A stretch of 64,000 bases of DNA from Botryllus schlosseri (Eukaryota). The DNA lies in NCBI GenBank assembly GCA_051294905.1, contig CM119372.1, positions 34,102,001 through 34,166,000 of the forward strand. The letters are read 5' to 3'. Both the position numbers and the translations under genes were made by a program. A model generated the notes under the pieces. It was not told the origin of the DNA. It made no database searches and was given only the letters and a program-made list of their open reading frames with translations. Positions 1,049-52,028 of this stretch are shown piece after piece. Position 1 is the first letter of the stretch. Each line of letters opens with the position of its first letter.

Positions 1049-4021
1049 CATAGTGTCCTATATGGTATCGACACAAGCAAATCGCACGGTTCAATGAAAT
1101 TGTATCACGTCACAGTTTCCATTTGGCTACAGGCAATTTGACGGTGATTTTTGCCCGACTTGCCGAGCATTAAATTTGATGAAGCGGGTATCAATCGAAA
1201 GCTGACGCTGTACTGCTTGCGAAAATATAAATTTCATTCCACTCATGGCCCTGGAACCCCCACAATCTGCCCCAAATTATTCATTGTCTAGTAGATTGGC
1301 AGTGTGACGCAACAATGATGTCTGGCGAAACGAGAGACTAGCTCAAGAGCAAGGATGCGGCCGAGCGGCGAGAGTGGGATCAGCTGACGTCGCGGCAATA
1401 GCAATGTGCAACCGCGCCACAGAGAAACGCTGCGCTGTTGATACTTTTTCTATGCGTTCCGGTACAAGCGAGCACACACCAGCCTTTCCTTGACTTGTAA
1501 AGGTAGAACTGGGTCCACGGAATGTATTAGGGCCCTACCAATTTTCGCGCAATATCCTTCAGCTGATAGAGATATGTAGTCTACATTGGATATGTCAGAT
1601 TATTATGATATCGATTGCCTTAGCCCGCTTGTTGCGTAAGGCTCCAGAGCAGACTTGGACAACTAGATAATTCTAGTTGTCTAATTTCACTAAATTAGAG
1701 CGAAATGCCAGTAATCTAATTCTAATCTAATTTGTGAAATGTTTCCATGCTCTAATTCTAATTCTAATCTAATTTGTGAAATGTTCTTCTGCTCTAATTC
1801 TAATTCTAATCTAATTTGTGAAATGTCCCTATTCTCTAATTCTAGTTCTAATCTAATTATTGTTTTAATGAAAATGCCTCTTTGTCCGAGGCATATTGCA
1901 CTATTGCGCAGGGAAATCCAGTGCCAAGCCGCCATCGCCTTACTTACACCGTGCAGTCATAGTAGATATTATGACGAATAATAGCCTGCTAGAGTAGCTT
2001 GTAGTCTGCGAACAAAATTCTAGTTTTTAAAACTTTACGTTAGTACATCGCCGTTCTGACTAACATGGGCGATGTCCATGGTTATTATGAAGAAGTAATA
2101 TTGTATTGGTGTACAGAAGTTAATGGGAATGCACTGATGTTGTTGTTGTTGTTTATTGAACAAAAATATGTGGCGCTTATCGCGTGACGGCCTTTTGCAC
2201 CACGCACTGTGATTTGATATGAACTGGATTTTGCTGTGTTCATTTCCCATATACAATTTCATTCAATTTCCAATTTTTTGCGAACTAAGTAGCTCTAATT
2301 CTAATTCTAATCTAATTTGGAAAAAACTTAGTAGCTCTAATTCTAATTCTAATCTAATTTGGAAAAAGCTGTGGAGCTCTAATTCTAATTCTAATCTAAT
2401 TTGGAAAAACTGTGTAACTCTAATTCTAATTCTAGTCTAATTTGAAAAAAACTATGGAGCTCTAATTCTAATTCTAATCTAATTCAGAAAAGCTGAAAAT
2501 TTTCTAGTTGTCCAAGTCTGCTCCAGAGATGCGTGGCGCTGTTGATACTTTTTCTACGCGCTTCGCTAAAAGCGAGCACACACCAGCCTTTCCTTGACTT
2601 GTAATGGTGAACTGGGTCCACAGAATGTATTTGGTCCCTACCAATTTTCGCGCAATCCTTCAGCTGTTAGAGATATTTCTAGTAAGAAAAATATACTTTC
2701 AAGTAATAAGATTCACTCAAGACAGCAAATTTAGATAATGTAAATATATCATATTGTAGTAATACAACTACAGTGTTGAGTTTTCACTCTAGTCCCCATA
2801 AGCACCACGTCGGTGACCTTGCCAAATTCCGAGAAGGCGAAAAAGTGCAAACTCTGTTGGGCCGAATGGACAATGGACATTCAGTTATTCACAGATGCGA
2901 AAAAAATACTGCAAATCCGTTTTAGGTAAGTTACATTAGGAATATATATACAGACTACAGAATGAGTATAATTCAAATATCTGTGATACCACTGTATTAC
3001 TTTTGACGCAAAATATCCCCGGCATTCAAAAAAACTATTTGGTGATTGAAAAATGCTAAACCAAATTCCAACGTCAACGTTTATAGTGATATCAGATATA
3101 TTCCAATGAAAAACAAAGGTATGAATTTGGTGCTAACATTTTGGAATCATTTGGCAGGTATGGCCCGCAAGCTTTCTAGTAACGGATTGAATCCGGACAG
3201 CGATTCCAGTTTAATTCGACACTCCTGCTGTTAAACTTTATTCAACAATCAACATTTTACCTGCTGCATTCGCGGACCAAGTCCCACCCATACGGATCAA
3301 ATAAAAGCTTGTAATGTATGCTCATGCTCAATGCTCCTTGCTCACACTTAACCATAAAAGCGACTATAGAAAGTATCTACACCCGCCATCAACAGCGCGA
3401 CGTGTCTCTGGAGCCCTACGCAACAAGCGGGCTAAGGCAACCGATATAATAATAATCTGACATATCCAATGTAGATTACTTAGACGTAGCCTACATATCT
3501 TTATCAGCTGAAGGATATTGCGCGAAAATTGGTAGGGCCCTAATACATTCTGTGGACCCAGTTCTACCCTTACAAGTCAAGGAAAGGCTGGTGTGTGCTC
3601 GCTTGTACCGAAACGCATAGAAAAAGTATCAAAAGCGCAGCGTTTCTTTGTGGCGCGTTTGCACATCGCTATTGCCGCGACGTCAGCTGATCCCACTCTC
3701 GCCGCTCGGCCGCATCCTTGCTCTTGAGCTAGTCTCTCGTTTCGCCAGACCGCATTGTTGCGTCACACTGCCAATCTACTCGACAATGAATAATTGGGGG
3801 CTGATGGTGGGGGTTCCAGGGCCGCGAGCGGAATAAAATTTATATTTTCGTAATCAGTGCAGAGTCAGCTTTCGATTGATATCCGATTCATCAAATTTAA
3901 TGCTCGGCAAGCCGGTCAAAAATCACCGTCAAATTGCCTGTAGCCAAATGGAAACTGTGACGTGATACAATTTCATTGAACCGTGCGATTTGCTTGTGTC
4001 GACACCATATAGGACACTATG
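1049..4021. mobile_element. Non-autonomous foldback element with ~630-bp TIRs, P/Galileo-like
   Basis: Ends CATAGTGTCCTATATGG...CCATATAGGACACTATG; 7-bp direct repeat GTTGAAC at 1042-1048 and 4022-4028. Left arm 1049-~2547 (interrupted by a MITE) is the reverse complement of ~3388-4021. Internal direct duplication ~1431-1575 / ~2535-2676. No transposase ORF. Confidence 0.8.
1650..2520. mobile_element. hAT-type MITE (871 bp) nested in the foldback left arm; present in all three units
   Basis: 18-bp TIR CAGACTTGGACAACTAGA; 8-bp TSD CTCCAGAG (1642-1649, 2521-2528); subterminal arrays of CTCTAATTCTAATTCTAATCTAATT. Confidence 0.93.
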
Positions 4022-4339
4022 GTTGAACACAATGATTTATCATTGATTCATGAACATGACCACGACCATGCACCATTGGTGCGGGTGAAACGTTCATGTG
4101 GAGTCGATTTGAGCGTTCAATTGCAACTTTCTAACCCTGTATAGTCCCACCGTTCTCTCAATTTTACATGTGTTACATAAACTATAAGGAAAGACGACAC
4201 GAAAACCCTACAGATATCGTTAATACGTGATAGAATGCATAAATTTGATAATCAGGTTAAATCTCTCTAACAAAATGGCGAAACGCATGAGCATGTACAT
4301 TGTATACATTGTACAATCAATGAAGAGACGTAATCGAAG

Positions 4340-9259: not shown

Positions 9260-11663
9260 ATTATAGGCTACATGATGAAGAAAAGGATTAATTCAATTGT
9301 CCGAATTTTTCGCTGCTGATGGTGAAGATTAATTTTACGGAATGACAGTTTTAAAGTTGCAACCCTCTTACGGGCCGTGGTAATCTTTATTATTTATCTT
9401 GAGCTAATATGTTCACACCACACGTTAAGACTATCCATGAGTTTTCGAACGGTGAGCATCGGGCGGGCCACTAGTAATTACTTACTTAGTTAAAGCATGC
9501 TGTTTTGTCGCGACTTCCGGAAAATGTTGTCGCCACTCAAAAGTTATCTCACGCGTACCACAACTCAATAAAAAATTGGTAAGATACGCACGGTTCCCAA
9601 TTTGCATTTATTCACAGCGCGCAAAATTTATTCCTCTGCTTCTTAGCATTTGTACCGTGGGACTCAGATTGCAATTAATGAGCCATCCCGCGCGATCTTA
9701 GGACAAGGTTCTAACGCCGGCGATATTTCTGGGATCGCACTTCGTGTTGGCTAAGACATATCTGCCTTGGTGTGTCTTTTTAGCGCCGTAAAGCTGATAC
9801 CTAATAGTCCCGCAACCGCTGGCAGCACACGCATATAATTAGATTCAATTCTGAATATCGTGCGTTTCTTTATTCAGGCCTATTTTTTGATTTTTTGATT
9901 TATCAAGAGGCGGGCACGCTATAATTAACATACCACTGAAACCATATATCGCGCAAAGCGCGATGAAAAATTTCAAGTCGGATACATATGGTCAATAATA
10001 ATAAACCTATATTAAGTTTTGAAAAATGTTCAAAAATTATTGGGAGCACGGCCCCATTCTCCCAGTCCTGGCGACGCCAGTGCTATTGTATATATACATA
10101 GGCCTATGTATTAATACCGCTAACAGACTGTTTTGCGATATTAAAGAAAGCTCGGTGGATTTACATGCGTGCTCAATACTTGCAGGAGATTGTAAGACAC
10201 TAGTACATGTAGTGTTTTGAGGCAGAAACTGTATAATATCAACTGCAAATACATATAATTACACATTATTGAAATGATAATAACGCAACCCCTTCATAAG
10301 AAAACAAAAATCACAATTCGAGCTCATAACATTATGTCGCTTCGGTACGTCGATTATACTTCCTTCTAGATATACATAGCTAATCGGAGATAATCAGATA
10401 AGCATAAAACAGGAATACTAGCGACATACAATAATATACTAAATATGATCCAGAGACGGGTCAATACAATCATCGAGATTTTTGGTTTCTGATGGGAAAA
10501 AATGTTAGCGAATGACTTGTTGAACGTGACAACTCCCTATGTATGGGATCTGGTAGTCTATAAGGACGATTATACACTGCTTACGCCTCTATACCGACAA
10601 CAGCTCACCATCGCTTCTGAAATCAATAATGGTGACAATATCAGAACTTATTGCCAATGAGTTTACATCCCTGTCGGTATACATGCCAAGGCGATCACAC
10701 GAAGACGAAGACGGTCATTAAATCTGTTTGTTTGTTTGAGGTATTCATTGTGTTTGTCGACTACTTTGTACATTTACACCACGCCAATTTTCTTCATTTT
10801 TATTCCGTAGCTGCCGACTTGTAGCACTGCCCACTTCCAGGCTTTTCATAAGACACCGCTTACGCGGATAAGATGGCGAGGATGAGCCTGGATAAACCTC
10901 CAACACTTAGGTAATTAAATCTCTATTCGCAGTCGACTAGTCACGAAACATCTTAGGGTTCACGATTATAATAATTATTAATTGTAATCACTGGTTTGCC
11001 TGGAAAATAAGGATCACTTCGTGGAATAATTTTGAATTTCCTGAAGAGTTCAACCCAAGCATTGCTCACCGAGGACTGACCGGTATAGCTGCGGTACCGG
11101 CGGATAGAATATAATACTAATCTGTGTGCTGCGTAGGCCTGCGGAACGCGCATCCCCCAAACTGAAAAGAGAGTGGCCTCTCACTGTCTTCGAGCTTCAG
11201 ATCCATATTTTAGTCAGTCTGACGTGGAATGCATAGTGCGGACGCTATACAAAATGGTAAATGGTAAGCGAGTAACAAATTGTGCGAATCCCTGGTTTAG
11301 TTAAATGCCTTGAATGAGCTTGAACTCGCCCGGCAGCTACTTTCCACCATAACGTTGTAGCAAACTACAATGAATTGGCGAAGTATAAATGAAAATTAAT
11401 TTCAAGGTCAGTGGCCATATCGATGTTCATTACTCACCCTCAAGCGGAATGCTTCGGATCCGTGTTCAGACAGCACAATCGAAAACAGAATTCCCATTTG
11501 ATCAGGAATCCTAACTGGATTGGATCCGGATCTTCAATAACACGACCCTTGCTTGTGTAATTATAATTGAGTCACCGCGGTACGCCCGCGAAGCAATTTC
11601 AGGTTATGCTCGACTAATTCATAATTATTCACTTCGTTGCACGCATCTAGCCGTTGAAATATC

Positions 11664-11815
11664 GAGAGAGAGAGAGAGAGAGAGAGAATCTTTATTCGTA
11701 TACATTACATATCAACATAACACTACAAAAAATGTAACAGTGAAATGCGACATGCAAGGTAGACGGGAGGCTCGATATGACATAGTCTTCAGAGCCGAGC
11801 CACCCAGGACAGGAG
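11664..11815 (-). mobile_element. 3' end of a CR1/L2-group LINE with (TC)n tail
   Basis: Minus strand reads GGCTCG...CGAGCC stem-loop, a T-rich tract, AATAAAGAT, then a (TC)n microsatellite (GA repeat on +, ~11664-11687). Confidence 0.55.
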
Positions 11816-21745: not shown

Positions 21746-22764
21746 ACAATAATATTATATACCAGTTCCAAAACGCGAGAAGTTGTGCATTATTAAAGAA
21801 GTACGACTTCAAATTTTAAATTGATTCAGGGTATTTCTGCATAGTGTCGTAATAGGGAGCTCATTGTCTACTTTGGTCGTACGTCACAATCAGGACCATA
21901 ACCGCCGCACCCCAAACCCCCCAACAAATATCGCCTACATGTAGCGCGGAAAACGTATGTCACGGCGGGGGTAGGGGGTGTGGAGGGCCTAAGACCAACA
22001 TTTTGGGGGGGGGGGCTGACGAAGTGCTGTTTCAGCGCTGGTCATAATGATACAAGTGTTGTGCGAAACTGTTTGAAAGTAGCCTACTACTTCGAACAAG
22101 TTACGGAGATTTTTTAACAAACTTCGTTAATTTCCGACAACGCAATCAAGCGACACTTCGCAGTATAATAAAATCTATAGGAGGGGTGGACAGACCTGCT
22201 TCATGTGCGAACCTCATAAAAAAATCTTAATTTTAAGAAAGCCACAACCACAACAAAAAAAATTCAAAAATACGAATTCATTTCGTCATACAGAAATGTG
22301 GGGTATCGAATGAAGTTTACTATAGTGTGATGATATGGTGCGTCTCCATCTGGGCTGCAAGGTGTTTGAAATCAGGCTGATATGATGTTGAATCAGTGCG
22401 GAGCAATTCCTTCAAGTTATAATAAGCATTTAAGGTAGATTTCAGCTCGGTAATCACAGTACTTCGTAAATCCGTCTTCGTTTCAAGTTACTAGTTTTGT
22501 AATTCTTAGGCGGATTTTGATAGATAAGACACATTGGCTTATACCTTCATTATCACTGAATGCAAACTCTTCCTCTCATTCTGTTTTGCAAGGTTTATAT
22601 TCCTGTTCATACTTTCTTTTATTTTTGCAATTATCGCTCAACGACATTTTCTTGGTCAAACTCTGCAGTTATTGCTACCCTTTACAATGAAAATAGAAGA
22701 TCCGTATTCACCATCTTTAGCCCAGAAATGATGTGAACTGCGCTGCCGTGGTTAACCGTTGAAC

Positions 22765-25737
22765 CATAGTGTCCTATATGGTGTCGACACAAGCAAATCG
22801 CACGGTTCAATGAAATTGTATCACGTCACAGTTTCCATTTGGCTACAGGCAATTTGACGGTGATTTTTGCCCGACTTGCCGAGCATTAAATTTGATGAAG
22901 CGGGTATCAATCGAAAGCTGACGCTGTACTGCTTGCGAAAATATAAATTTCATTCCACTCATGGCCCTGGAACCCCCACAATCTGCCCCAAATTATTCAT
23001 TGTCTAGTAGATTGGCAGTGTGACGCAACAATGATGTCTGGCGAAACGAGAGACTAGCTCAAGAGCAAGGATGCGGCCGAGCGGCGAGAGTGGGATCAGC
23101 TGACGTCGCGGCAATAGCAATGTGCAACCGCGCCACAGAGAAACGCTGCGCTGTTGATACTTTTTCTATGCGTTCCGGTACAAGCGAGCACACACCAGCC
23201 TTTCCTTGACTTGTAAGGGTAGAACTGGGTCCACGGAATGTATTAGGGCCCTACCAATTTTCGCGCAATATCCTTCAGCTGATAGAGATATGTAGTCTAC
23301 ATTGGATATGTCAGATTATTATGATATCGATTGCCTTAGCCCGCTTGTTGCGTAAGGCTCCAGAGCAGACTTGGACAACTAGATAATTCTAGTTGTCTAA
23401 TTTCACTAAATTAGAGCGAAATGCCAGTAATCTAATTCTAATCTAATTTGTGAAATGTTTCCATGCTCTAATTCTAATTCTAATCTAATTTGTGAAATGT
23501 TCTTCTGCTCTAATTCTAATTCTAATCTAATTTGTGAAATGTCCCTATTCTCTAATTCTAGTTCTAATCTAATTATTGTTTTAATGAAAATGCCTCTTTG
23601 TCCGAGGCATATTGCACTATTGCGCAGGGAAATCCAGTGCCAAGCCGCCATCGCCTTACTTACACCGTGCAGTCATAGTAGATATTATGACGAATAATAG
23701 CCTGCTAGAGTAGCTTGTAGTCTGCGAACAAAATTCTAGTTTTTAAAACTTTACGTTAGTACATCGCCGTTCTTACTAACATGGGCGATGTCCATGGTTA
23801 TTATGAAGAAGTAATATTGTATTGGTGTACAGAAGTTAATGGGAATGCACTGATGTTGTTGTTGTTGTTTATTGAACAAAAATATGTGGCGCTTATCGCG
23901 TGACGGCCTTTTGCACCACGCACTGTGATTTGATATGAACTGGATTTTGCTGTGTTCATTTCCCATATACAATTTCATTCAATTTCCAATTTTTTGCGAA
24001 CTAAGTAGCTCTAATTCTAATTCTAATCTAATTTGGAAAAAACTTAGTAGCTCTAATTCTAATTCTAATCTAATTTGGAAAAAGCTGTGGAGCTCTAATT
24101 CTAATTCTAATCTAATTTGGAAAAACTGTGTAACTCTAATTCTAATTCTAGTCTAATTTGAAAAAAACTATGGAGCTCTAATTCTAATTCTAATCTAATT
24201 CAGAAAAGCTGAAAATTTTCTAGTTGTCCAAGTCTGCTCCAGAGATGCGTGGCGCTGTTGATACTTTTTCTACGCGCTTCGCTAAAAGCGAGCACACACC
24301 AGCCTTTCCTTGACTTGTAATGGTGAACTGGGTCCACAGAATGTATTTGGTCCCTACCAATTTTCGCGCAATCCTTCAGCTGTTAGAGATATTTCTAGTA
24401 AGAAAAATATACTTTCAAGTAATAAGATTCACTCAAGACAGCAAATTTAGATAATGTAAATATATCATATTGTAGTAATACAACTACAGTGTTGAGTTTT
24501 CACTCTAGTCCCCATAAGCACCACGTCGGTGACCTTGCCAAATTCCGAGAAGGCGAAAAAGTGCAAACTCTGTTGGGCCGAATGGACAATGGACATTCAG
24601 TTATTCACAGATGCGAAAAAAATACTGCAAATCCGTTTTAGGTAAGTTACATTAGGAATATATATACAGACTACAGAATGAGTATAATTCAAATATCTGT
24701 GATACCACTGTATTACTTTTGACGCAAAATATCCCCGGCATTCAAAAAAACTATTTGGTGATTGAAAAATGCTAAACCAAATTCCAACGTCAACGTTTAT
24801 AGTGATATCAGATATATTCCAATGAAAAACAAAGGTATGAATTTGGTGCTAACATTTTGGAATCATTTGGCAGGTATGGCCCGCAAGCTTTCTAGTAACG
24901 GATTGAATCCGGACAGCGATTCCAGTTTAATTCGACACTCCTGCTGTTAAACTTTATTCAACAATCAACATTTTACCTGCTGCATTCGCGGACCAAGTCC
25001 CACCCATACGGATCAAATAAAAGCTTGTAATGTATGCTCATGCTCAATGCTCCTTGCTCACACTTAACCATAAAAGCGACTATAGAAAGTATCTACACCC
25101 GCCATCAACAGCGCGACGTGTCTCTGGAGCCCTACGCAACAAGCGGGCTAAGGCAACCGATATAATAATAATCTGACATATCCAATGTAGATTACTTAGA
25201 CGTAGCCTACATATCTTTATCAGCTGAAGGATATTGCGCGAAAATTGGTAGGGCCCTAATACATTCTGTGGACCCAGTTCTACCCTTACAAGTCAAGGAA
25301 AGGCTGGTGTGTGCTCGCTTGTACCGAAACGCATAGAAAAAGTATCAAAAGCGCAGCGTTTCTTTGTGGCGCGTTTGCACATCGCTATTGCCGCGACGTC
25401 AGCTGATCCCACTCTCGCCGCTCGGCCGCATCCTTGCTCTTGAGCTAGTCTCTCGTTTCGCCAGACCGCATTGTTGCGTCACACTGCCAATCTACTCGAC
25501 AATGAATAATTGGGGGCTGATGGTGGGGGTTCCAGGGCCGCGAGCGGAATAAAATTTATATTTTCGTAATCAGTGCAGAGTCAGCTTTCGATTGATATCC
25601 GATTCATCAAATTTAATGCTCGGCAAGCCGGTCAAAAATCACCGTCAAATTGCCTGTAGCCAAATGGAAACTGTGACGTGATACAATTTCATTGAACCGT
25701 GCGATTTGCTTGTGTCGACACCATATAGGACACTATG
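22765..25737. mobile_element. P/Galileo-like foldback element, copy 2 (with nested MITE)
   Basis: Same termini and GTTGAAC flanks as 1049-4021. Confidence 0.8.
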
Positions 25738-27197
25738 GTTGAACACAATGATTTATCATTGATTCATGAACATGACCACGACCATGCACCATTGGTGCGG
25801 GTGAAACGTTCATGTGGAGTCGATTTGAGCGTTCAATTGCAACTTTCTAACCCTGTATAGTCCCACCGTTCTCTCAATTTTACATGTGTTACATAAACTA
25901 TAAGGAAAGACGACACGAAAACCCTACAGATATCGTTAATACGTGATAGAATGCATAAATTTGATAATCAGGTTAAATCTCTCTAACAAAATGGCGAAAC
26001 GCATGAGCATGTACATTGTATACATTGTACAATCAATGAAGAGACGTAATCGAAGCCTAACATCCGCAAGCGTCTGGTGAGCCGCAGTTTGCCCATCCCT
26101 GAGCTATAGCAATCATTAAAGTCGCATTTCTTTTAAAGGATACTGGACATTTACAATCAAGTTTGTGCTGTTCAACTTAGGGATACCATATGTCCTTAGC
26201 CGGACTTCGCGAGCTTCGTTAGCAGAAACTTCTATAGAATGATGTATGCCTTATAAATATCTGATTTTAAAGGGCAGCGTTAAATAAAGTTTTAAATATT
26301 ACATTTGAGTTGCGTGCATTTGTTGTAATTAGATTTAGAGTTTGGGGCCCTAGGGGACGCGTAACACGGTTTGGAAAACCTTGTTCAACACCATTGTCTT
26401 TAGTACAACATTAAAATAACGGGGCGCCCAAACAAGAATAGTCCTAGGGCAGTGGTTCCCAAGTGAGGGGGGGGGGGGAATTCCCCCCTTGGGGGAATTT
26501 TGAAATTTTTAGGGGGGAATCTGGTTTAAATTTCTTAGGGGAAATCTGGCTATGGCATTGTATTGGAAGATGCACTGGGTTCGCAAGGTTTTCAGAATTT
26601 TATGGTGTAGAACTGTTAAGTAGAAATTAGTTCTTTGCAATTGTATGTTTCTTTGGCGGATTTCAAGCTAGGTGTATATTTAAAAGCCTTCCGTAGATAT
26701 TACACCCCCTGATAAAGTCGAGGCTCACGAGGCGATTTCGTTGTGTCAGCGACAGCCTCTCGACCAAATTGTTACTAGGCAGGAAAACGTCGAGCCGAAT
26801 TCAGCACAAGGCCGCTAGTGAAATTGTTTAACTTTTTAAACCAACATATGAGCTAACGGGAAAAACATACCGTACCAAATTCATCGATTCAACTCAAGTC
26901 CATAGCAAGCGGACTTGTTGATTTATTTTTCGTCAGCGGCTACCCGACCGGGCACACACAGGTCAAATTTGACTGTACTGACTGACTGGGGGTAGGGGGG
27001 GGGGGGTGCATGTAAAAGAGTATACGACACACTGATCATGTTTGTGTTCTGCTTTGCAAATCAGTTCGATTGATACTCTATTCTAATCGAAAGTAGCGGA
27101 AACGTTGATCACTAGTTGGGCCAGTTGTAGATGTACTAATGTTCTCGTTCATAATAGATAAAACCCAATTTTCTTGGTGACTCGTATTGCGGAAACG

Positions 27198-39396: not shown

Positions 39397-41957
39397 TTAA
39401 CCTATGACGAAGCGACAAAGGATTAAAAAAATAGCGATTGTTCCAAGTCCAACGATAATATTTGATGTAATTTTGATGCTACACATGGAACAAAGTATAT
39501 TGTCGCAAATTTGACTGGCTATTTCGGTTATCCGGGGCGTCGCAGGTTAATTGCGGGAATAAGGTGACTCTCACGTCCTTCGTGTCCAGAGATTCAATGA
39601 TGGTTTACCTATAGCATAGTGACGTGCGTTCGAAGGACGTCTCACCTGTTGTCATGACCGCAAAAGAAAATTGTGAAAACTTTCAATGAGGGATTGGTAT
39701 TATTCTACCGATGTTAATGAATGACTAATCCTGAACATGTTTACACGCAAGATGATGCGATTTACATATTTATTGTTCACAAATACTGAGAGAAGAGAGA
39801 CGTGGTGCACAGACGAAACAAGCCTAATCTGTGTTTGCGCAAATACTCGTCAAGAGCGCTGAATTTATAATTCATTGTTTTAATCAAATGCCATTATTAC
39901 ACTGATTTCGAAGATCAAGTAATATTAATTACCAATCGCCAAAACAGCAGGACCCCCTTGTAATTTCCATGAAGTTTGGAATTTTTTTTTCTTGCGTTCA
40001 ATGACTACGCAGTGACTCAATAAAACTTGAGATAGAAATTTATACACCTTGCCAATTGTTCGTTATCAATCCAACAAGCGCAGAACATTGAAACAATGCG
40101 CTATCGGTTATCGACAGAGATAGTCAAAGCAGTCAAGAATTCAGTGCATGTATTCAAACATTCTCAAGGAATTTCGAAAGGTAATCATAAATACTATCTC
40201 ATGGGCTGTCACAGGCCGCAAATTGACCTATGAGAACTGTGCAGAGAACTGGATTCGTGTTGCTACATCCTAAGATGTCTAAATCTTCAATGGCATAAAA
40301 ATTCGACACCATCATCTGAAGTAAGTTTTGTTATATATGACAACGGCTCTTAACCTTTTTTTTAGCTCATCTCCCTTTCCAGAAATGTAATATTAAGGTT
40401 CCGTCCACCGTAATACAATCCCCGTGACGATGAAGCTGAAATGGGGCATATCGTAAAGATATAGGCCTATTTACGACAGGGGTGTCAAACAAACGGCCCG
40501 CGGGCCGCCAGACGATTTCATCCGGCCCACGAAGCAATTCTGATTAGATTGAAAACTGCTTATGTTTTCCAGCACATTTTTAACTAATGTTGAGATCTTA
40601 TTTAAGGAAATACTTCCATTTAAATAATCTCAAAAGGCAGCGAATGCCGACAATGGTAATTGTTCAAGGTTACATTTTAACCACCCCGACTGCAGGTTTG
40701 TGGTTTCACTCTAGACTTACCACTTGGAACAATTCGGTGACTTTGATACTCGATTTCGAGAAGGCAAAAACGAGCAGACTGACATCAGACTTTTATGGAA
40801 AAACGGACCGAAATGCAGTTATTCGCAGAAGCGAAATCGCCAATGCGGAATCGTTTTTTTGCAGTTTACATGGATAATATATTACTTATATACAAAAATA
40901 CATTTTAGATATCCGTGTCGTTACTGCTATGTTACTTCTGACTCAAAATGTTCCCTGACTCCAGATAAACCAGAATCGCGATTTAGAAAAATGAAACAAA
41001 TTCGAACGTCCGCGTTTGCGGTTAAATCTCTTGTGGTCCTCACAATGCATGGGCAGGGCTAACACCTGAAAGAATAGGGAGCATAGAAATATACCATCTT
41101 ATATTGTAATTAGCGCCACTATTTTAGCCATTCATAACTGTATTCAGCCGGCTAGTCATCGGATTTTGGTCAATTTCATAATTCGCGAATATAGGTGTTG
41201 CTACTTGCTACAGTAAAAATAACCTGTGATCCATGACATAGTAAAAAAAAAACTGTGATTCATGACACAATGTGATATAGGCTACTATTATCTTTATCAA
41301 ATATTGAAGTATTCGAGTGAAAAGCAATGACATGAGGTAACAATTTTTGAATCAGTTGATTGGTCCGGCCGGCAAGCGATTTGAAGGTTTGAATCCGGCC
41401 CGCGACGCAATTTGAGTTTGCCACACCTGATTTACGATATATAAATATATGAAAATTTATCCTTAGAAATAGGAGCATTCAAACAGCAAATTTCAGTTGA
41501 TAATATGACAGCAAAAATTATCTAAAATCCCATTCAAGTGCTGTAGGAGTAGGCTACATCAAATTATAGCAATGACGATAATGACTTCTTAAAACATTGC
41601 AAAAAATTGATATGCATCCGGTACAGCACATCAAACCTTCTCTATTCATTAGATCAACAAACAGAACTTAAATTTTATTGACCTCAAAAAAGTGATGGTT
41701 AAAACTACGAAGCAAAATGTCGATTGTAGATGCAAGGGATCAAATGGGTTTGGTGATAGAAACTTTTAAGTAATAATAGGGCTAATACCAGCAAGCATAT
41801 ATTGCCTTCGATAAAACTGATTCCTAATCTTCAGTACTTCTGGAGTCATTATGTGCGTGCAACTATAATATGTCCATTCCATACCCATTTCCTCGGCACA
41901 TTGTACAAATGGCGTCATTTCTGGCAGATAGTGGGTGCGGCGGGATATTTGCAGGGC

Positions 41958-44900
41958 CAGAGATGGAAGTCGGGCCGGGCTTTTCGGGTTCGGGCCGGGT
42001 TCGGGCCGGGCTCGGGCCGGGTTCGGGCCCAAACTTATAAAAATTATCGGGATTGAATCGGGCCGAATAGTCACTACGAAAAGCATTGACTTCATTTACA
42101 AATTTGATTTGCAATTTTGTTCGAAAGTGGCACAACTACATATAAGACACACCAATACCATATCACGTAAGTATGGCAATATCTGTGAATAAATTTTATA
42201 CGCAGTACGAACCCAGATAAACTTCATTATAAGACGGCCCGAAGACTATGATTGAATAATGAAACAATGTCAGCTAAATAGTAAACAAGTGTCCCAAATA
42301 CGCCAGACATTGATCATTGTTCAGGCCACATTGTGACGAAAACATGACTTACGGATGGATGGATTACCATGCTGGAGCCTGGATTACTACCAATTTAGTT
42401 ATAATTTCGATGTGGCATGCTGAACTGAACAGCTAGAAGCAAGTGATGAGACGACGGCTTCCGTTGTGGCACAGCAGAATTGATCGATAGATGTGTTACG
42501 GCGGTGTTAATATTTATTAAAGAAAGCTTTTAGATGCGCCATAGTGATTTTGTCGTCCATGGTGAATTGCTTTAGGTCTATACGGAAACTAACTTATATT
42601 GTATTAGGCTATGTGACAGCGGTAGTATTGTTATATAGTAGGCTACACTAACAGTAAATAATGCAGACGACACATGAATTATCAAAAGAATTGCAAAGAC
42701 ATCCAGAACGATTTACGTTTTCTCCTGCTCCAGGTCGATCAGAGTTTTGGAGGACAATGAAAGTCGTAGCACGGCGTTGTCAGCTTACTAATGCTGTAAT
42801 TGGTGTCACACCGGAAATTTTGACCGGAATAGTTTCATGCGGTGTTTGCAAACTAGTATTAAAATACGATTGCCAAAAAACAGGGTCGTCCCATATCAAG
42901 CGCCATTCCGAACATTGCAAGCCTGGGTCTCATGGGAAAAAGAAGCAGCAGCTAATGTTACAGTTTGCAAATAAAACGCTTAGACTAAGCGAATCTGAAA
43001 AGCTGGACATAAAAACTGCTGAATTGGAGTTTTGCGTTCGTGGCTATCATGCCTTTCAATCAGTTGAAAATGACGGCCTGATCAAGCTATTACAGCAATT
43101 TGTGAACATGTCCGCGACGCATGGACGTTTTAATGTATCAGACGTGATATATGGACGTAAAACTATATCGTTATATTGCAAGGAAAAAGCTGCAGTAATA
43201 AGGGAAAGGACAACAGAGGTTTTAGTTGAACCACAGTTAGCCGAAGCCGTCGCAGTAACGTTGGACTTGTGGACGGACGAATACAAGCATACGTCATACC
43301 TAGACGTACACGTCTTCTGGATTGATAAGTCCTATGAACTGAAACATCAAGTTTTGGCGGTACGTCATTTTGGGACTGAACGTCACACTGCTGAAAATAT
43401 TTCACGGGTTATACAGACTATATTGGCTGAATATGCTATTGATGCTTCAAACATTACGGCAACTACCGACCACGGTGCAAATGTTGTCGCTGCCTTTCGA
43501 GTAGGAATGTTGGAAACGTCCGCACGCCTTGACTGTATGGCACATAGGCTACACACTTGCTTCTCAACCATGTGGTCACGGGTATGCACTTCACAGTCAG
43601 AATTGCTCGATTACGATAACAATGCATCTTCTCTGGTAAAGTATTGTAATCAAGCCTCCGGTGTGCAGGAACAACTGCCCGTGTCGTTGAAAAAAGGCTC
43701 GTCAACTCGGAGATGGCAAGGCTATATTGATAGAGCATATTCCATCAACGAAAGTTATGAAGCTTTGGTGCGCATTCTTTCAGAACCACACAGAGACCGC
43801 ATGCAGCTCATAGCATCTGTTAATCGAAGAATGAACGCGGAAATTTTACAATTCATGAAACCATTCGGCGATATATTTGATGTTATGCAATTTAATTCCA
43901 AACCAACGATAGGCTACGCCGTGCTAGCGTATTATAAGGCGTTTGAACTTGCAAAACCTTGCCAGAATGACCATCCCGTTATCAAGGCCATGAAGACAGA
44001 ACTTAGACAACTTTTGGACACAGTATATTTTAAATCTTCGCTGAAGGCCCATCACTGGCTAGCTACCTTTCTCGATCCAAATTTCAAACGATTTGAATTT
44101 CTGCCACTTATTAGTAATGAAGAGGTCTCATTCAAGATAAGATTGCTCTCGGACATTGATAAATGGGTAATTGAACACATGGAAAAGGTTGCCGACAATA
44201 GCCCAGGAAATCAAGACTATGTTCGATCAGAAGCAAGAGAAATGCGACCAATCGAACTTGATGATCCATTCTCCCAATTTCGCGACGGTCTTGACAGACA
44301 TTCTGCTCCAAGCTTCGCTTCGTCTGACAGTATCAAGCGAAACTTACTTCAGGAACTTCAACGGTACAAGGAATACCAAAATGCATCATCGCACCCCAAT
44401 CCGCTGAACTTCTGGAGAAACCATGAACGGGACTTTCCAACGCTCTCCTGGGTGGCTAGAAAGATGTTTGCAGCCCAGTGCTCAAGTGCGCAATCCGAAA
44501 GAGATTTTTCTTCGTGCGGTCTGACCTTGTCGCAGAGACGAACCCGACTGTCTCCAGTAACTGTTGAGGCTATTGAAATAATCAATTCTTCGTATAACGT
44601 GTGAATGCAACGCCCTTTGTATGGATGACATTTGACTTGTATTTTGAACAGACTATTTTTTCTCATCTTGGCCAATTTCATTCCTTTATTTCTTTAATTT
44701 AGTTTAATATTGAACCATTTAATACAGTTCACATTTTGCAAAAAGCATGGTGGAACTAAGTTAACAGTGGGGCTGTTTTCAGCGTATTCTCATTCAGATA
44801 TATTAAGTTCTCTTGCCATGTGCAAGATTGCTATCAAAAGAAAACAAAGTGAGAGCATTGAAAGCGTTGAAAAGCTCGAAATTTGAATCGTATATCAGCT

Positions 44901-45055
44901 TATTTGCTCGCAACAGTTGAAAATTGCTATTTGAACTTGGTTTCGGGCCGAAACGGGCTGAAAACTCGACCGAGGGGTTCAGGCCGGGTTCGGGCTGAAC
45001 TTGTCGGGTTCGGGCCGGGTTCGGGTCCGGCTCACCCGGCCCGCTTCCATCTCTG
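41958..45055 (+). mobile_element. Apparently autonomous hAT DNA transposon (Ac family, Hermes/hobo-like), 3098 bp
   Basis: Perfect 12-bp TIR CAGAGATGGAAG / CTTCCATCTCTG, extending as (T)CGGGCCGGG. 8-bp TSD TGCAGGGC at 41950-41957 and 45056-45063. TTCGGGCCGGG-type subterminal repeats at both ends. Copy 1 has a single TGCAGGGC (empty site, ~20234-20241). Confidence 0.97.
42661..44604 (+). CDS. hAT transposase (BED zinc finger, DDE catalytic core, C-terminal hATC domain), 647 aa, intronless
   Basis: CGVC...HIKRHSEHC BED finger; TLDLWTD and TTDHGANV (two catalytic Asp); CMAH (CxxH); TRRW; FLDP; PLNFW...FPTL; SSAQSERDFS (catalytic Glu). Motif order matches Hermes-type transposases. Confidence 0.96.
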   Translation: MQTTHELSKELQRHPERFTFSPAPGRSEFWRTMKVVARRCQLTNAVIGVTPEILTGIVSCGVCKLVLKYDCQKTGSSHIKRHSEHCKPGSHGKKKQQLMLQFANKTLRLSESEKLDIKTAELEFCVRGYHAFQSVENDGLIKLLQQFVNMSATHGRFNVSDVIYGRKTISLYCKEKAAVIRERTTEVLVEPQLAEAVAVTLDLWTDEYKHTSYLDVHVFWIDKSYELKHQVLAVRHFGTERHTAENISRVIQTILAEYAIDASNITATTDHGANVVAAFRVGMLETSARLDCMAHRLHTCFSTMWSRVCTSQSELLDYDNNASSLVKYCNQASGVQEQLPVSLKKGSSTRRWQGYIDRAYSINESYEALVRILSEPHRDRMQLIASVNRRMNAEILQFMKPFGDIFDVMQFNSKPTIGYAVLAYYKAFELAKPCQNDHPVIKAMKTELRQLLDTVYFKSSLKAHHWLATFLDPNFKRFEFLPLISNEEVSFKIRLLSDIDKWVIEHMEKVADNSPGNQDYVRSEAREMRPIELDDPFSQFRDGLDRHSAPSFASSDSIKRNLLQELQRYKEYQNASSHPNPLNFWRNHERDFPTLSWVARKMFAAQCSSAQSERDFSSCGLTLSQRRTRLSPVTVEAIEIINSSYNV

Positions 45056-47592
45056 TGCAGGGCATGCTGTCAGTCAGGATTTCACACATTCAGTTTGTAA
45101 GATCAATCCATCTCAGCTTACTTAATGCCTACATCACACTGTTAATTTAAGATCCATAATCGCTCTTGATCCTGCTCTGATATCATTGTGAAGCACGCCA
45201 TTTAAAGCTTTGTGATACAGCTCAACTTATTTGCGATGAATGCTGCAAAATGTTCGCATGATAGAAAGGATATAAAGGGACGCAAACGCCCAGTGAACTT
45301 CTTTACATTATGTACTGCAGCAGACTAAGCTGACCAAGCCTATGATTAATCGATGAAATTGCACTGAGAAACTATATAACCTCGGAAATAAAATCATCGT
45401 CATGGAGTTAGGTCAGCTGCTGCAAATAACTGAACATGGCTCGTGTACCGATCAATGTTCCCTCTAAGCTGCGCACGTTCGCAATTTCGGACTGCCGACA
45501 CGGTCTCTGCGCACATAAAATTTAAGCTGCGCACAAAAATTCCGAAATGATGACCTTTTTCTAGTCGTTATGCACTGTTTTCTAAGGGACCGCGCAGTGA
45601 GTTAGTGAGTGCGCGCAGACTCGTGAAAAATTAGAGGGAACATCGGTACCGATGCAGATTCTATTAGAGGGCGCACTGGGTATATTTTCCCTCACTTGTC
45701 TTGAGATTCGCAGGCCTGTGTTGTGTTTAGCTTTACATAACGAGTCCAATTTCCGTTTTGTAGTCGGATAAGTGGTTCATAAAGTGGTCGCCAGCGTCCG
45801 GCTGGGTGACGTTTACGACCTCGAATGGGGTTGATAGCTACAATTTGGGCGGTCGGGGGCGCTGAGAGTAAACGTAGGCTGTTTGACCTATGAGTAACTG
45901 TTTGGGTGAGTCCTTGAATTAGAGCTCTCTCTGTGCGCCAATGTAAGATTTATGAATTTATGATCACGTCGTTCACGGTCGTACAAGGTGGATTCAATCG
46001 AAAATCGTCACGCACGCTCTCCGCATATGTTCATTGTGAAGGAGGATTGAGTGTTCTAACTGACCAAACAATCAATCAAACAACGAATAGACTAATTATT
46101 CAGTGACACTTATTGTACGATTGTTTTCACTGACTGTGTCTGTCCGGAAATTCGTACAAAAAGGGACAGATCAACGCGAAAAATCTATGCGACAATGCAG
46201 TGACTGTGCAATGAGCCAAATACCTTTTTTTTTTTGGGGGGGGGGGGGGGGGAGCAGGAAGGGGCTAGGGACTGTTCGATACCTGGTTTGCTGTGGAGGT
46301 GGTCGATGTGCAGAAAAAGTTTGGCAAACACTGCTCTAGTATAACGGGCTGATTACCAACGTCCAAAACAGGCAGGCAGGTTTTCCCAAGCATATAATTG
46401 CAATAATATTGCACGTGCCTAGCCCAAGGAACTGAACGAGATCATTCCGACGGTGTCTAGATGCGCATAACTTGCTGGCGGCTGGAATAAAACGACTCTT
46501 ATATTTCTAGTCTAGGAGCAATGGTTCCCAACCGCCTGTCCGTGGCAGCTTCCTGCCGGTCCGCCAAATGAACAATAATATTATATACCAGTTCCAAAAC
46601 GCGAGAAGTTGTGCATTATTAAAGAAGTACGACTTCAAATTTTAAATTGATTCAGGGTATTTCTGCATAGTGTCGTAATAGGGAGCTCATTGTCTACTTT
46701 GGTCGTACGTCACAATCAGGACCATAACCGCCGCACCCCAAACCCCCCAACAAATATCGCCTACATGTAGCGCGGAAAACGTATGTCACGGCGGGGGTAG
46801 GGGGTGTGGAGGGCCTAAGACCAACATTTTGGGGGTGGCTGACGAAGTGCTGTTTCAGCGCTGGTCATAATGATACAAGTGTTGTGCGAAACTGTTTGAA
46901 AGTAGCCTACTACTTCGAACAAGTTACGGAGATTTTTTAACAAACTTCGTTAATTTCCGACAGCGCAATCAAGCGACACTTCGCAGTATAATAAAATCTA
47001 TAGGAGGGGTGGACAGACCTGCTTCATGTGCGAACCTCATAAAAAAATCTTAATTTTAAGAAAGCCACAACCACAACAAAAAAAATTCAAAAATACGAAT
47101 TCATTTCGTCATACAGAAATGTGGGGTATCGAATGAAGTTTACTATAGTGTGATGATATGGTGCGTCTCCATCTGGGCTGCAAGGTGTTTGAAATCAGGC
47201 TGATATGATGTTGAATCAGTGCGGAGCAATTCCTTCAAGTTATAATAAGCATTTAAGGTAGATTTCAGCTCGGTAATCACAGTACTTCGTAAATCCGTCT
47301 TCGTTTCAAGTTAGGCTACTAGTTTTGTAATTCTCAGGCGGATTTTGATAGATAAGACACATTGGCTTATACCTTCATTATCACTGAATGCAAACTCTTC
47401 CTCTCATTCTGTTTTGCAAGGTTTATATTCCTGTTCATACTTTCTTTTATTTTTGCAATTATCGCTCAACGACATTTTCTTGGTCAAACTCTGCAGTTAT
47501 TGCTACCCTTTACAATGAAAATAGAAGATCCGTATTCACCATCTTTAGCCCAGAAATGATGTGAACTGCGCTGCCGTGGTTAACCGTTGAAC

Positions 47593-50565
47593 CATAGTGT
47601 CCTATATGGTGTCGACACAAGCAAATCGCACGGTTCAATGAAATTGTATCACGTCACAGTTTCCATTTGGCTACAGGCAATTTGACGGTGATTTTTGCCC
47701 GACTTGCCGAGCATTAAATTTGATGAAGCGGGTATCAATCGAAAGCTGACGCTGTACTGCTTGCGAAAATATAAATTTCATTCCACTCATGGCCCTGGAA
47801 CCCCCACAATCTGCCCCAAATTATTCATTGTCTAGTAGATTGGCAGTGTGACGCAACAATGATGTCTGGCGAAACGAGAGACTAGCTCAAGAGCAAGGAT
47901 GCGGCCGAGCGGCGAGAGTGGGATCAGCTGACGTCGCGGCAATAGCAATGTGCAACCGCGCCACAGAGAAACGCTGCGCTGTTGATACTTTTTCTATGCG
48001 TTCCGGTACAAGCGAGCACACACCAGCCTTTCCTTGACTTGTAAGGGTAGAACTGGGTCCACGGAATGTATTAGGGCCCTACCAATTTTCGCGCAATATC
48101 CTTCAGCTGATAGAGATATGTAGTCTACATTGGATATGTCAGATTATTATGATATCGATTGCCTTAGCCCGCTTGTTGCGTAAGGCTCCAGAGCAGACTT
48201 GGACAACTAGATAATTCTAGTTGTCTAATTTCACTAAATTAGAGCGAAATGCCAGTAATCTAATTCTAATCTAATTTGTGAAATGTTTCCATGCTCTAAT
48301 TCTAATTCTAATCTAATTTGTGAAATGTTCTTATGCTCTAATTCTAATTCTAATCTAATTTGTGAAATGTCCCTATTCTCTAATTCTAGTTCTAATCTAA
48401 TTATTGTTTTAATGAAAATGCCTCTTTGTCCGAGGCATATTGCACTATTGCGCAGGGAAATCCAGTGCCAAGCCGCCATCGCCTTACTTACACCGTGCAG
48501 TCATAGTAGATATTATGACGAATAATAGCCTGCTAGAGTAGCTTGTAGTCTGCGAACAAAATTCTAGTTTTTAAAACTTTACGTTAGTACATCGCCGTTC
48601 TGACTAACATGGGCGATGTCCATGGTTATTATGAAGAAGTAATATTGTATTGGTGTACAGAAGTTAATGGGAATGCACTGATGTTGTTGTTGTTGTTTAT
48701 TGAACAAAAATATGTGGCGCTTATCGCGTGACGGCCTTTTGCACCACGCACTGTGATTTGATATGAACTGGATTTTGCTGTGTTCATTTCCCATATACAA
48801 TTTCATTCAATTTCCAATTTTTTGCGAACTAAGTAGCTCTAATTCTAATTCTAATCTAATTTGGAAAAAACTTAGTAGCTCTAATTCTAATTCTAATCTA
48901 ATTTGGAAAAAGCTGTGGAGCTCTAATTCTAATTCTAATCTAATTTGGAAAAACTGTGTAACTCTAATTCTAATTCTAGTCTAATTTGAAAAAAACTATG
49001 GAGCTCTAATTCTAATTCTAATCTAATTCAGAAAAGCTGAAAATTTTCTAGTTGTCCAAGTCTGCTCCAGAGATGCGTGGCGCTGTTGATACTTTTTCTA
49101 CGCGCTTCGCTAAAAGCGAGCACACACCAGCCTTTCCTTGACTTGTAATGGTGAACTGGGTCCACAGAATGTATTTGGTCCCTACCAATTTTCGCGCAAT
49201 CCTTCAGCTGTTAGAGATATTTCTAGTAAGAAAAATATACTTTCAAGTAATAAGATTCACTCAAGACAGCAAATTTAGATAATGTAAATATATCATATTG
49301 TAGTAATACAACTACAGTGTTGAGTTTTCACTCTAGTCCCCATAAGCACCACGTCGGTGACCTTGCCAAATTCCGAGAAGGCGAAAAAGTGCAAACTCTG
49401 TTGGGCCGAATGGACAATGGACATTCAGTTATTCACAGATGCGAAAAAAATACTGTAAATCCGTTTTAGGTAAGTTACATTAGGAATATATATACAGACT
49501 ACAGAATGAGTATAATTCAAATATCTGTGATACCACTGTATTACTTTTGACGCAAAATATCCCCGGCATTCAAAAAAACTATTTGGTGATTGAAAAATGC
49601 TAAACCAAATTCCAACGTCAACGTTTATAGTGATATCAGATATATTCCAATGAAAAACAAAGGTATGAATTTGGTGCTAACATTTTGGAATCATTTGGCA
49701 GGTATGACCCGCAAGCTTTCTAGTAACAGATTGAATCCGGACAGCGATTCCAGTTTAATTCGACACTCCTGCTGTTAAACTTTATTCAACAATCAACATT
49801 TTACCTGCTGCATTCGCGGACCAAGTCCTACCCATACGGATCAAATAAAAGCTTGTAATGTATGCTCATGCTCAATGCTCCTTGCTCACACTTAACCATA
49901 AAAGCGACTATAGAAAGTATCTACACCCGCCATCAACAGCGCGACGTGTCTCTGGAGCCCTACGCAACAAGCGGGCTAAGGCAACCGATATCATAATAAT
50001 CTGACATATCCAATGTAGATTACTTAGACGTAGCCTACATATCTTTATCAGCTGAAGGATATTGCGCGAAAATTGGTAGGGCCCTAATACATTCTGTGGA
50101 CCCAGTTCTACCCTTACAAGTCAAGGAAAGGCTGGTGTGTGCTCGCTTGTACCGAAACGCATAGAAAAAGTATCAAAAGCGCAGCGTTTCTTTGTGGCGC
50201 GTTTGCACATCGCTATTGCCGCGACGTCAGCTGATCCCACTCTCGCCGCTCGGCCGCATCCTTGCTCTTGAGCTAGTCTCTCGTTTCGCCAGACCGCATT
50301 GTTGCGTCACACTGCCAATCTACTCGACAATGAATAATTGGGGGCTGATGGTGGGGGTTCCAGGGCCGCGAGCGGAATAAAATTTATATTTTCGTAATCA
50401 GTGCAGAGTCAGCTTTCGATTGATATCCGATTCATCAAATTTAATGCTCGGCAAGCCGGTCAAAAATCACCGTCAAATTGCCTGTAGCCAAATGGAAACT
50501 GTGACGTGATACAATTTCATTGAACCGTGCGATTTGCTTGTGTCGACACCATATAGGACACTATG
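47593..50565. mobile_element. P/Galileo-like foldback element, copy 3 (with nested MITE)
   Basis: Same termini and GTTGAAC flanks as 1049-4021. Confidence 0.8.
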
Positions 50566-52028
50566 GTTGAACACAATGATTTATCATTGATTCATGAACA
50601 TGACCACGACCATGCACCATTGGTGCGGGTGAAACGTTCATGTGGAGTCGATTTGAGCGTTCAATTGCAACTTTCTAACCCTGTATAGTCCCACCGTTCT
50701 CTCAATTTTACATGTGTTACATAAACTATAAGGAAAGACGACACGAAAACCCTACAGATATCGTTAATACGTGATAGAATGCATAAATTTGATAATCAGG
50801 TTAAATCTCTCTAACAAAATGGCGAAACGCATGAGCATGTACATTGTATACATTGTACAATCAATGAAGAGACGTAATCGAAGCCTAACATCCGCAAGCG
50901 TCTGGTGAGCCGCAGTTTGCCCATCCCTGAGCTATAGCAATCATTAAAGTCGCATTTCTTTTAAAGGATACTGGACATTTACAATCAAGTTTGTGCTGTT
51001 CAACTTAGGGATACCATATGTCCTTAGCCGGACTTCGCGAGCTTCGTTAGCAGAAACTTCTATAGAATGATGTATGCCTTATAAATATCTGATTTTAAAG
51101 GGCAGCGTTAAATAAAGTTTTAAATATTACATTTGAGTTGCGTGCATTTGTTGTAATTAGATTTAGAGTTTGGGGCCCTAGGGGACGCGTAACACGGTTT
51201 GGAAAACCTTGTTCAACACCATTGTCTTTAGTACAACATTAAAATAACGGGGCGCCCAAACAAGAATAGTCCTAGGGCAGTGGTTCCCAAGTGAGGGGGG
51301 GGGGGAATTCCCCCCTTGGGGGAATTTTGAAATTTTTAGGGGGGAATCTGGTTTAAATTTCTTAGGGGAAATCTGGCTATGGCATTGTATTGGAAGATGC
51401 ACTGGGTTCGCAAGGTTTTCAGAATTTTATGGTGTAGAACTGTTAAGTAGAAATTAGTTCTTTGCAATTGTATGTTTCTTTGGCGGATTTCAAGCTAGGT
51501 GTAAATTTAAAAGCCTTCCGTAGATATTACACCCCCTGATAAAGTCGAGGCTCACGAGGCGATTTCGTTGTGTCAGCGACAGCCTCTCGACCAAATTGTT
51601 ACTAGGCAGGAAAACGTCGAGCCGAATTCAGCACAAGGCCGCTAGTGAAATTGTTTAACTTTTTAAACCAACATATGAGCTAACGGGAAAAACATACCGT
51701 ACCAAATTCATCGATTCAACTCAAGTCCATAGCAAGCGGACTTGTTGATTTATTTTTCGTCAGCGGCTACCCGACCGGGCACACACAGGTCAAATTTGAC
51801 TGTACTGACTGACTGTGGGTAGGGGGGGGGGGGGGGGTGCATGTAAAAGAGTATACGACACACTGATCATGTTTGTGTTCTGCTTTGCAAATCAGTTCGA
51901 TTGATACTCTATTCTAATCGAAAGTAGCGGAAACGTTGATCACTAGTTGGGCCAGTTGTAGATGTACTAATGTTCTCGTTCATAATAGATAAAACCCAAT
52001 TTTCTTGGTGACTCGTATTGCGGAAACG

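Follow-up and report, generated by a model that had tools for sequence, protein, structure and literature searches.

Excision of Sleeping Beauty is described as leaving the scars TACAGTA or TACTGTA (PMC6943129), and Stowaway/mariner elements as leaving behind the target duplication plus some bases of the element ends (PMC4561436). The latter source describes hAT footprints as palindromes that are derived from the flanks and carry no element bases, and PIF/Harbinger elements as excising precisely, by cutting within the duplication. Published ISL2EU elements, for which THAP-HTH-DDE coding together with a YqaJ open reading frame (ORF) and a terminal inverted repeat (TIR) starting with GG are given as criteria, are reported to duplicate AT in A|AT|T (PMC4482050). 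Here we compare with these systems a 5-bp difference, TA to TAGGCTA, found in a single tandem-array unit of Botryllus schlosseri. The window, meaning the whole stretch of 64,000 nucleotides analyzed (G000:C2:34102001-34166000, in a genome of 495 Mb), spans three of the tandem units. We consider it probable, with moderate confidence, that the five bases are a footprint left by the excision of a TA-duplicating cut-and-paste transposon with ends 5'-GGC(C)...(G)GCC-3'. Mutations of this kind are already known; new here are the sequence of the scar and how often it occurs, together with the failure to trace it to a source element.

In the third unit (copy 3), window positions 47306-47322 read caagtTAGGCTActag, with the duplicated TA around GGC, TAGGCTA, at 47312-47318, where copy 1 (767-778) and copy 2 (22483-22494) both read caagtTActag around a single TA (773-774 and 22489-22490, respectively), exactly as the original prediction had given the three sites. 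The geometry of TA plus 3 nt plus TA, which had been pointed out as that of a footprint, is exact, and alignment allows TAGGC, AGGCT, or GGCTA as the five extra bases. The array (G000:C2:34051778-34184572) consists of about 6.1 units of 21.7 kb that are 99.6-99.9% alike; units 1 and 2 are 99.93% identical, and unit 3 is 99.75% identical to both. Five of the six units covering the site have the short form and copy 3 alone has the long form, which agrees with the claim that the insertion is private to it.

The direction of the change was read from the repeat that hosts the site, an old member of a dispersed, roughly 585-bp family (46992-47582 on the + strand, window coordinates computed from unit positions 453-1038) whose left end is TA|CAGGGGTGGGCAGACC. 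Relatives of this repeat are many, lie on other chromosomes, and show 68-86% identity. Thirteen aligned relatives cover the site, and the insertion is present in none of them, while the exact TTAC is found in eight. Because five of six units are short and 0 of 13 relatives has the insertion, the long form represents the derived state, gained in unit 3 rather than lost from the other units, and the converse, an ancestral TAGGCTA, which had been named as a possible refutation, did not materialize. The single TA is thus taken as ancestral in unit 1 by unit and outgroup comparison and in unit 2 by unit comparison. Gene conversion from a dispersed relative was considered and rejected, since two relative-specific positions lying between the two private changes of this region, the insertion and a substitution described below, were not taken over and the insert occurs in no relative. 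One homologue (L015:1670) has a 5-bp insertion of its own, TA-TAA-TA (TATAATA) at the TA of CTAG, three bases off the position homologous to that of copy 3, with a like geometry and other inner bases. The consensus of the 585-bp family (e.g., L016:1522, L020, and L023) contains gaaatgTAGGCTAtcgaatg; if this were a scar, the process would be older than the spread of the family, at about 25-30% divergence.

The alignment of seven full or partial units gave 86 substitution columns and 31 indel rows, and the indels are nearly all length changes in runs of G, A, or T or in a GA run. Private to unit 3 are three insertions: +3 TGA and +4 ACTA, which are tandem duplications, and the +5 at the site, which duplicates only TA. 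Among the 31 indel rows of this seven-row alignment, the +5 is the sole 2-10 bp insertion private to a single unit once run-length changes and tandem duplications are set aside. Unit 3 also has 12 private substitutions per 21.7 kb, and one of them, T to C at 47335, is 17 nt downstream of the insertion (P=0.019 for a private unit-3 substitution falling within ±17 nt of it). The other five units and the host-repeat relatives have T at this position, which was ancestrally the T of a TA|GGC string (cTTAGGCgg).

A first rival explanation is an error in the assembly or consensus of a near-identical array unit, or a collapsed allelic variant. Logan contigs from 4 public runs (3 samples) contain the short form and T only, and 9 runs (3 studies) hold the stretch with a share of 0.60-0.65 of the sampled words, the sampled words that span the variant being in none of them; Logan contigs drop minority variants, however, and cannot show absence. 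Many of the remaining unit differences are G-run lengths (unit positions 288, 4751, 5280, and 21410) that resemble, and may be, sequencing noise. On the other hand, a nonrepetitive 5-bp insertion accompanied by a substitution 17 nt off would be an unusual long-read error, and the inserted word is the very one that shows genome-wide enrichment and turns up again in paralogue pairs, as described below, which is not expected of an error. We regard this explanation as quite improbable.

Another possibility is a one-off event of error-prone break repair or template switching that copied TTAGGC from 16 nt downstream and mutated that motif at the same time. Polymerase-theta end joining produces templated short insertions. 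In the ancestral sequence, unit positions 790-795 have cTTAGGCgg, and the junction newly formed is gTTAGGCta; the sole nearby private substitution of unit 3 falls inside the 6-nt motif (P=0.003), so that two private changes stand no more than 17 nt apart in a unit with only 12 private substitutions. Copying of GGC would give +3 and not +5, however, and by this reasoning the second TA needs an extra, unprimed step. Two other origins of the inserted bases were examined and rejected. Telomerase addition of TTAGGC does not agree with contig C2, which starts with (CTAACC)n, the TTAGGG type, or with the base before the word, which is mostly G or A and not T. An inverted 9-mer, TAGGCTACT, located 411 bp upstream, has flanks unrelated to those of the site and was taken as another instance of the word rather than as a template.

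Insertions of the same form recur at other TA sites. We took a census of small insertions over local paralogue alignments, over 146 kb first and then over 217,908 bp; the latter contained 425 distinct 2-10 bp insertions past the flank filter. The class of 5-bp, nontandem insertions that duplicate TA consists, leaving copy 3 aside, of four events, with the inner bases GGC (L014:2193), GCC (L071:484, the same event as the GCC insertion at L072:1544), TAA, and TCG; two of the four are thus GSC (binomial P=0.0056). The 6-bp class includes GGCC (L014:2032) and the 7-bp class GGCCC (unit position 17004 versus a flanking paralogue), and the form GGCGCC was seen once, in a repeat family. The GCC event is polarized cleanly within one repeat family, in which AGTAAA-TA-TTACATAA is found in four of six copies, and the remaining two, the most closely related pair, have AGTAAA-TA-GCC-TA-TTACATAA, the target AATATT having become AATA-GCC-TATT. 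Older events are blurred by later substitutions, e.g., by the consensus TG at the duplicated TA of L014. The recurrence at unrelated loci speaks against a one-off templated repair, as does the finding that none of three other insertion events has a template of at least 6 nt within ±100 nt.

The words that such insertions would leave are also overrepresented. In the window, TAGSCTA occurs 27 times versus 5.06 expected from shuffles, with 8 per unit, 4 in a hAT transposon described below, and the new one; among 13 of the window instances, the word is followed by C in 11 and preceded by G in 7, and the flanks are otherwise unrelated. Over the whole genome, GTAGSCTAC has 28,321 sites (2,795 for the reversed-pattern control; composition expectation, calculated by hand from 40.6% G+C here and below, about 2,570), whereas GTAGWCTAC, with A or T at the center, has 3,967 (reversed control 3,197; composition about 3,850) and is not enriched. 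GTAGGCCTAC occurs 10,508 times versus 119 for the reversed control and about 257 expected from composition. TAGSCTA with one restricted base 12 nt out on either side gave 88,396 sites versus 33,975 for the reversed control, from which a total of about 1.4 x 10^5 TAGSCTA words genome-wide was extrapolated. In the nonredundant local 146 kb, TAGSCTA was counted 57 times versus 19 expected, with 13 of the 57 representing one homologous host-repeat site; TAGACTA and TAGTCTA were counted 16 times each versus 28 expected each, and TAGGCCTA 7 times versus 1.9 expected. The enrichment at TA sites that the original prediction had proposed as a check was accordingly found at both levels, as GSC/GGCC microinsertions that recur among paralogues and as an excess of words that is restricted to G/C centers. 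An excess of at least 10-fold over the genome, with a G/C center only, goes beyond what local templating can provide, and a one-off templated repair at copy 3 therefore seems unlikely to us.

The flanks of 100 listed TAGSCTA sites, oriented to the G center, were tallied by hand; at least 8 of the rows are paralogous to others. The base at -1 is G in 51, A in 25, T in 16, and C in 8, the base at +1 is C in 57, T in 27, A in 13, and G in 3, and the flank pair G...C is found in 32 of the 100 sites versus about 4 expected. The context of the word, as far as these listed sites represent it, is the palindrome R-TA-GSC-TA-Y, and palindromic flanks would look like a target-site preference around TA. 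Since the flanks are otherwise unrelated, the words are not fragments of a single long repeat; some do lie within repeat families. A stacked palindrome, TAGGCTACTGTAGCCTA, equivalent to TA-GGC-TA-CTG-TA-GCC-TA, was observed at L022:2825 and at G000:C1:52621-52661 and is borne by a repeat family.

These numbers and flanks might also be explained by sequence-specific microinsertion that involves no mobile TA|GGC element, e.g., by a domesticated or defective transposase or a nuclease that cuts R-TA-Y, with repair writing GSC or GGCC. The huge number of words without a matching element in the 218 kb sampled, the palindromic flank preference in the 100-site tally, and stacked forms such as TAGGCTACTGTAGCCTA would all suit such a process. 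No enzyme is known to write a fixed insert of 3-4 nt untemplated, which we count against it. Moreover, the series GSC, GGCC, and GGCGCC is the product expected of element-derived overhangs, intact TA-targeting (pogo) and GG-ended (PIF/Harbinger-ISL2EU-Spy, PHIS) transposons are abundant, and the inspection for elements covered only about 0.06% of the genome. On balance, we think such a process rather unlikely.

Excision of a transposon, the reading that we favor, would proceed as follows. After unit 3 had split from its sisters, the element would have inserted at the TA of caagtTActag, and staggered cutting at its excision would have kept a few of its terminal bases attached to the flanks in the form of 3' overhangs. 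End joining might then pair GGC with GCC across a mismatch in the center (G-G or C-C), the product being GGC or GCC, and in copy 3 TA-GGC-TA would have been fixed. A two-base overlap would give GGCC, and no overlap GGCGCC, so that the series GSC, GGCC, and GGCGCC seems to fit the joining of 3-nt overhangs, GGC and GCC, with overlaps of 3, 2, and 0. Overhang joining of GGC...GCC ends would account for the word family, for the exclusive G/C center, and for the TA duplication. The nearby T to C change may, speculatively, have arisen through a mistake in this repair or through nicking at the look-alike TA|GGC 17 nt away. The derived state and the geometry are observed, as are the recurrence at other TA sites and the excess of TA-GSC-TA and TA-GGCC-TA over the genome; the history of insertion and excision and the identity of the element are inferred. 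As to the source, we divide our expectation about equally, about one third each, among a pogo-like element (Tc1/mariner superfamily), an ISL2EU/PIF-like element with GGCC ends, and something outside the sample.

Over 146 kb and then 218 kb, the scan for TA|GG...CC|TA inverted repeats recovered hAT elements, which have 8-bp duplications, fragments of large inverted repeats, and one ISL2EU family, and nothing else. The pogo-type DDE_1 domain (PF03184) has 72 matches in the genome, many of them in open frames of 500-740 aa and several in identically scoring copies. In one pogo-like family (a), with a 582-aa ORF that contains DDE_1 and HTH_psq, both of two copies start agreeing at G-TA-GGGTAGAGTGGGGCAAAACGCC, and the left end is G|TA|GGGTAGAG... 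in both. At another pogo-like locus, a candidate inverted repeat begins with TACATTTAAC. Repeated contexts after GTAGGCC were tried as element ends and rejected as repeat-internal, since the upstream flank was conserved in all four groups and an inverted partner was lacking.

The ISL2EU family found by the scan (L042:2334-7036 and L043:1794-6497) is intact and 4.7 kb long, with inverted repeats of 220 bp. Its coding part comprises THAP, HTH_Tnp_4, and DDE_Tnp_4 domains plus an opposite ORF with a YqaJ domain, and the family has both the coding signature and the GG-rich TIR tip of ISL2EU. All of the 12 copies inspected are bounded as AATA|GGCCTTTTGCAGG...CCTGCAAAAGGCC|TATT, i.e., AATA|GGCC...GGCC|TATT, with unrelated DNA outside, and the TA|GGC...GCC|TA of the original prediction is contained in this arrangement. 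These boundaries can be read as an AT duplication (A|AT|T, tips AGGCC), as a TA duplication (AATATT, tips GGCC), or as no duplication. An empty site was sought by comparing the 25- and 140-nt flanks of 10 copies and the 300-nt flanks of 2 with all the local DNA, and none spanned the insertion point. The GCC event, in which AATATT became AATA-GCC-TATT, fits the TA reading alone, as a single case noticed post hoc. The copy-3 target, gtTAct, differs from AATATT, and therefore at best a related family made the copy-3 scar. The family is put at roughly 250 copies, with about 500 terminal-repeat candidates genome-wide, and its L042 copy lies directly against a related element's tip (ATTGCGCTCGAAAGTCACGTGAC). 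More generally, DDE_Tnp_4 (PIF/Harbinger/ISL2EU) has at least 150 matches over the cut-off among 891 candidates, mostly free of stops; three other DDE_Tnp_4 families in the sampled DNA have ends such as AATAGACAC... and (T)GGCCATTGGG..., among others, and none has a clear TA duplication with free flanks. It is possible, though doubtful, that the scars come from an ISL2EU/PIF-type group that has GGCC tips, duplicates TA in R-TA-Y (in the observed family, AATATT), leaves mariner-like scars, and made the ~10^5 GSC/GGCC marks. Such mariner-like scars would perhaps be owed to the YqaJ exonuclease partner. An ISL2EU source, if true, would contradict the published precise excision of PIF/Harbinger relatives.

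Movement within the array itself is documented by a hAT transposon of 3,098 bp present in unit 2 only (41958-45055, + strand; TIR CAGAGATGGAAG), which is flanked by the 8-bp duplication TGCAGGGC at 41950-41957 and 45056-45063. Its ORF (42661-44604) encodes 647 aa with a hAT dimerization domain, and at least 40 near-identical copies exist in the genome. The element shows cut-and-paste movement in the array after the units had diverged, but it is not the source of the scar. It holds four TAGGCTA words (42605, 42639, 43545, and 43910); those at 42605 and 42639 were considered as new events and rejected, since they are common to all full-length copies and hence inherited. Among 40 listed matches to hAT positions 42560-42690, 24 end at query positions 78-82, inside GTAGGCTAC (42638-42646), and the internal-deletion breakpoint of a common nonautonomous derivative of the element falls in the GTAGGCTAC word.

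Another explanation of the copy-3 word, as TAGG and CTA joined from the tips of a hAT element with TAGG...CCTA ends, was considered in view of this insertion in unit 2 and of the hAT and hAT-like ends in the sampled DNA, TAGGCTTACC, TAGGGCC, and TAGGGCTGGG, one of which is polymorphic between paralogues. The sampled elements have the 8-bp duplications CCAGACAC, TGGTTATC, GTAATAAG, and ATTGTAAT, in one case demonstrated by comparison with empty paralogues, whereas an 8-bp direct repeat is present neither around the scar (47304-47326) nor at the listed words. The scar lacks 8-bp repeats, and a hAT element is therefore not its source; hAT footprints as described, derived from the flanks and free of element bases (PMC4561436), point the same way. 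A hAT remnant is accordingly a highly improbable explanation. A 1,048-bp nonautonomous hAT element, TAGGGCC...GGCCCTA, with the 8-bp duplication GTAATAAG, occupies L072:235-1282 in one of three paralogous copies (compared with L071 and L073). A miniature inverted-repeat transposable element with ends TAGGC(T/G)TACCATA and 8-bp duplications is present in two copies (G000:C2:34045528-34045979 and 34033287-34033831), both within the 20 kb left of the array.

The units differ or are structured in two further respects. In unit Ua (G000:C2:34070282), about 394 bp beside a GA run are missing (unit positions 11321-11714). An element of about 3 kb, located at 1042-4028, 22758-25744, and 47586-50572, has inverted arms of about 620 bp that are 93% alike, ends CATAGTG...CACTATG, and an apparent 7-bp duplication, GTTGAAC; it sits nested in the 585-bp host repeat, which resumes beyond it.

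Several points weigh against excision as the origin of the copy-3 word. A GGC-ended element with a proven TA duplication was not found in the 218 kb sampled, and the site is unoccupied in all six units, so that an allele or paralogue with the full element, which had been suggested as a check, is missing there. Genome profile searches gave no match for Tc1 (PF13358) or mariner (PF01359), although the PF13358 search misses weak members, and a pogo-like ORF scores 35 bits on this profile when tested directly. The two pogo-like ends seen, from 2 of about 10 families, start with GGG or CAT and not with GGC, and a PHIS source would break two published rules, those of AT duplication and of precise excision. 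The ancestral TTAGGC 16 nt downstream contains the linked substitution (P=0.003), which may suggest that a local template was involved. Public contigs, which cannot show absence, give the copy-3 form no independent support. Finally, about 1.4 x 10^5 TAGSCTA words would be very many scars for an unseen family. The proposal of an excision footprint of a GGC...GCC element is thus supported in part, as to derived state, geometry, and recurrence. Of the "unidentified and recently active family" proposed along with it, the first part holds, with one ISL2EU candidate now at hand, while recent activity rests solely on the youth of this one event.

If the excision reading is true, one 5-bp difference in a tandem repeat has led to a process that marks the genome about every 4 kb, and among the small insertions of a chordate relative, excision scars make up a sequence-specific class of considerable size. 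The word might then serve in the search for its source element and as a cheap, testable marker for cut-and-paste movement, past and recent. Should it turn out to be an ordinary Tc1/pogo scar, the finding would be routine, and the abundance of one scar type would be its unusual part. A limited search of the literature on ascidian excision footprints found nothing relevant.

The copy-3 site resembles each of the known systems in part. With hAT footprints it shares the presence of active hAT elements in the array, several of which end in TAGG...CCTA, but hAT elements make 8-bp duplications and flank-derived footprints, and the scar lacks flanking 8-bp repeats. A polymerase-theta templated insertion would likewise be short, with a nearby matching motif and a linked point change, as seen here, but the TA duplication and the one fixed, genome-wide word are left unexplained by it. 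Among ISL2EU elements, the L042/L043 family has THAP-HTH-DDE_Tnp_4 plus YqaJ and ends that read TA|GGCC...GGCC|TA; in contrast, the published duplication is AT, the copy-3 target is not AATATT, and the PIF type is described as excising precisely in the source cited above. The pogo/Tigger elements target TA, and here they have intact DDE_1 ORFs and one left end, G|TA|GGG..., with G at -1 as in the enriched word, while the ends seen are GGG and CAT rather than GGC in the families inspected. The canonical Tc1/mariner footprint differs in that the 3 nt are CAG/CTG, and not GGC/GCC as here, and in that no Tc1 or mariner transposase was detected by the genome profile searches, while the scar word reaches ~10^5 copies. 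Nevertheless, the change of TA into TA plus 3 nt plus TA is the same, the center is ambiguous between a base and its complement in both (G/C here, A/T in Sleeping Beauty), and GGCC and GGCGCC fit the partial overlap of two 3-nt overhangs.

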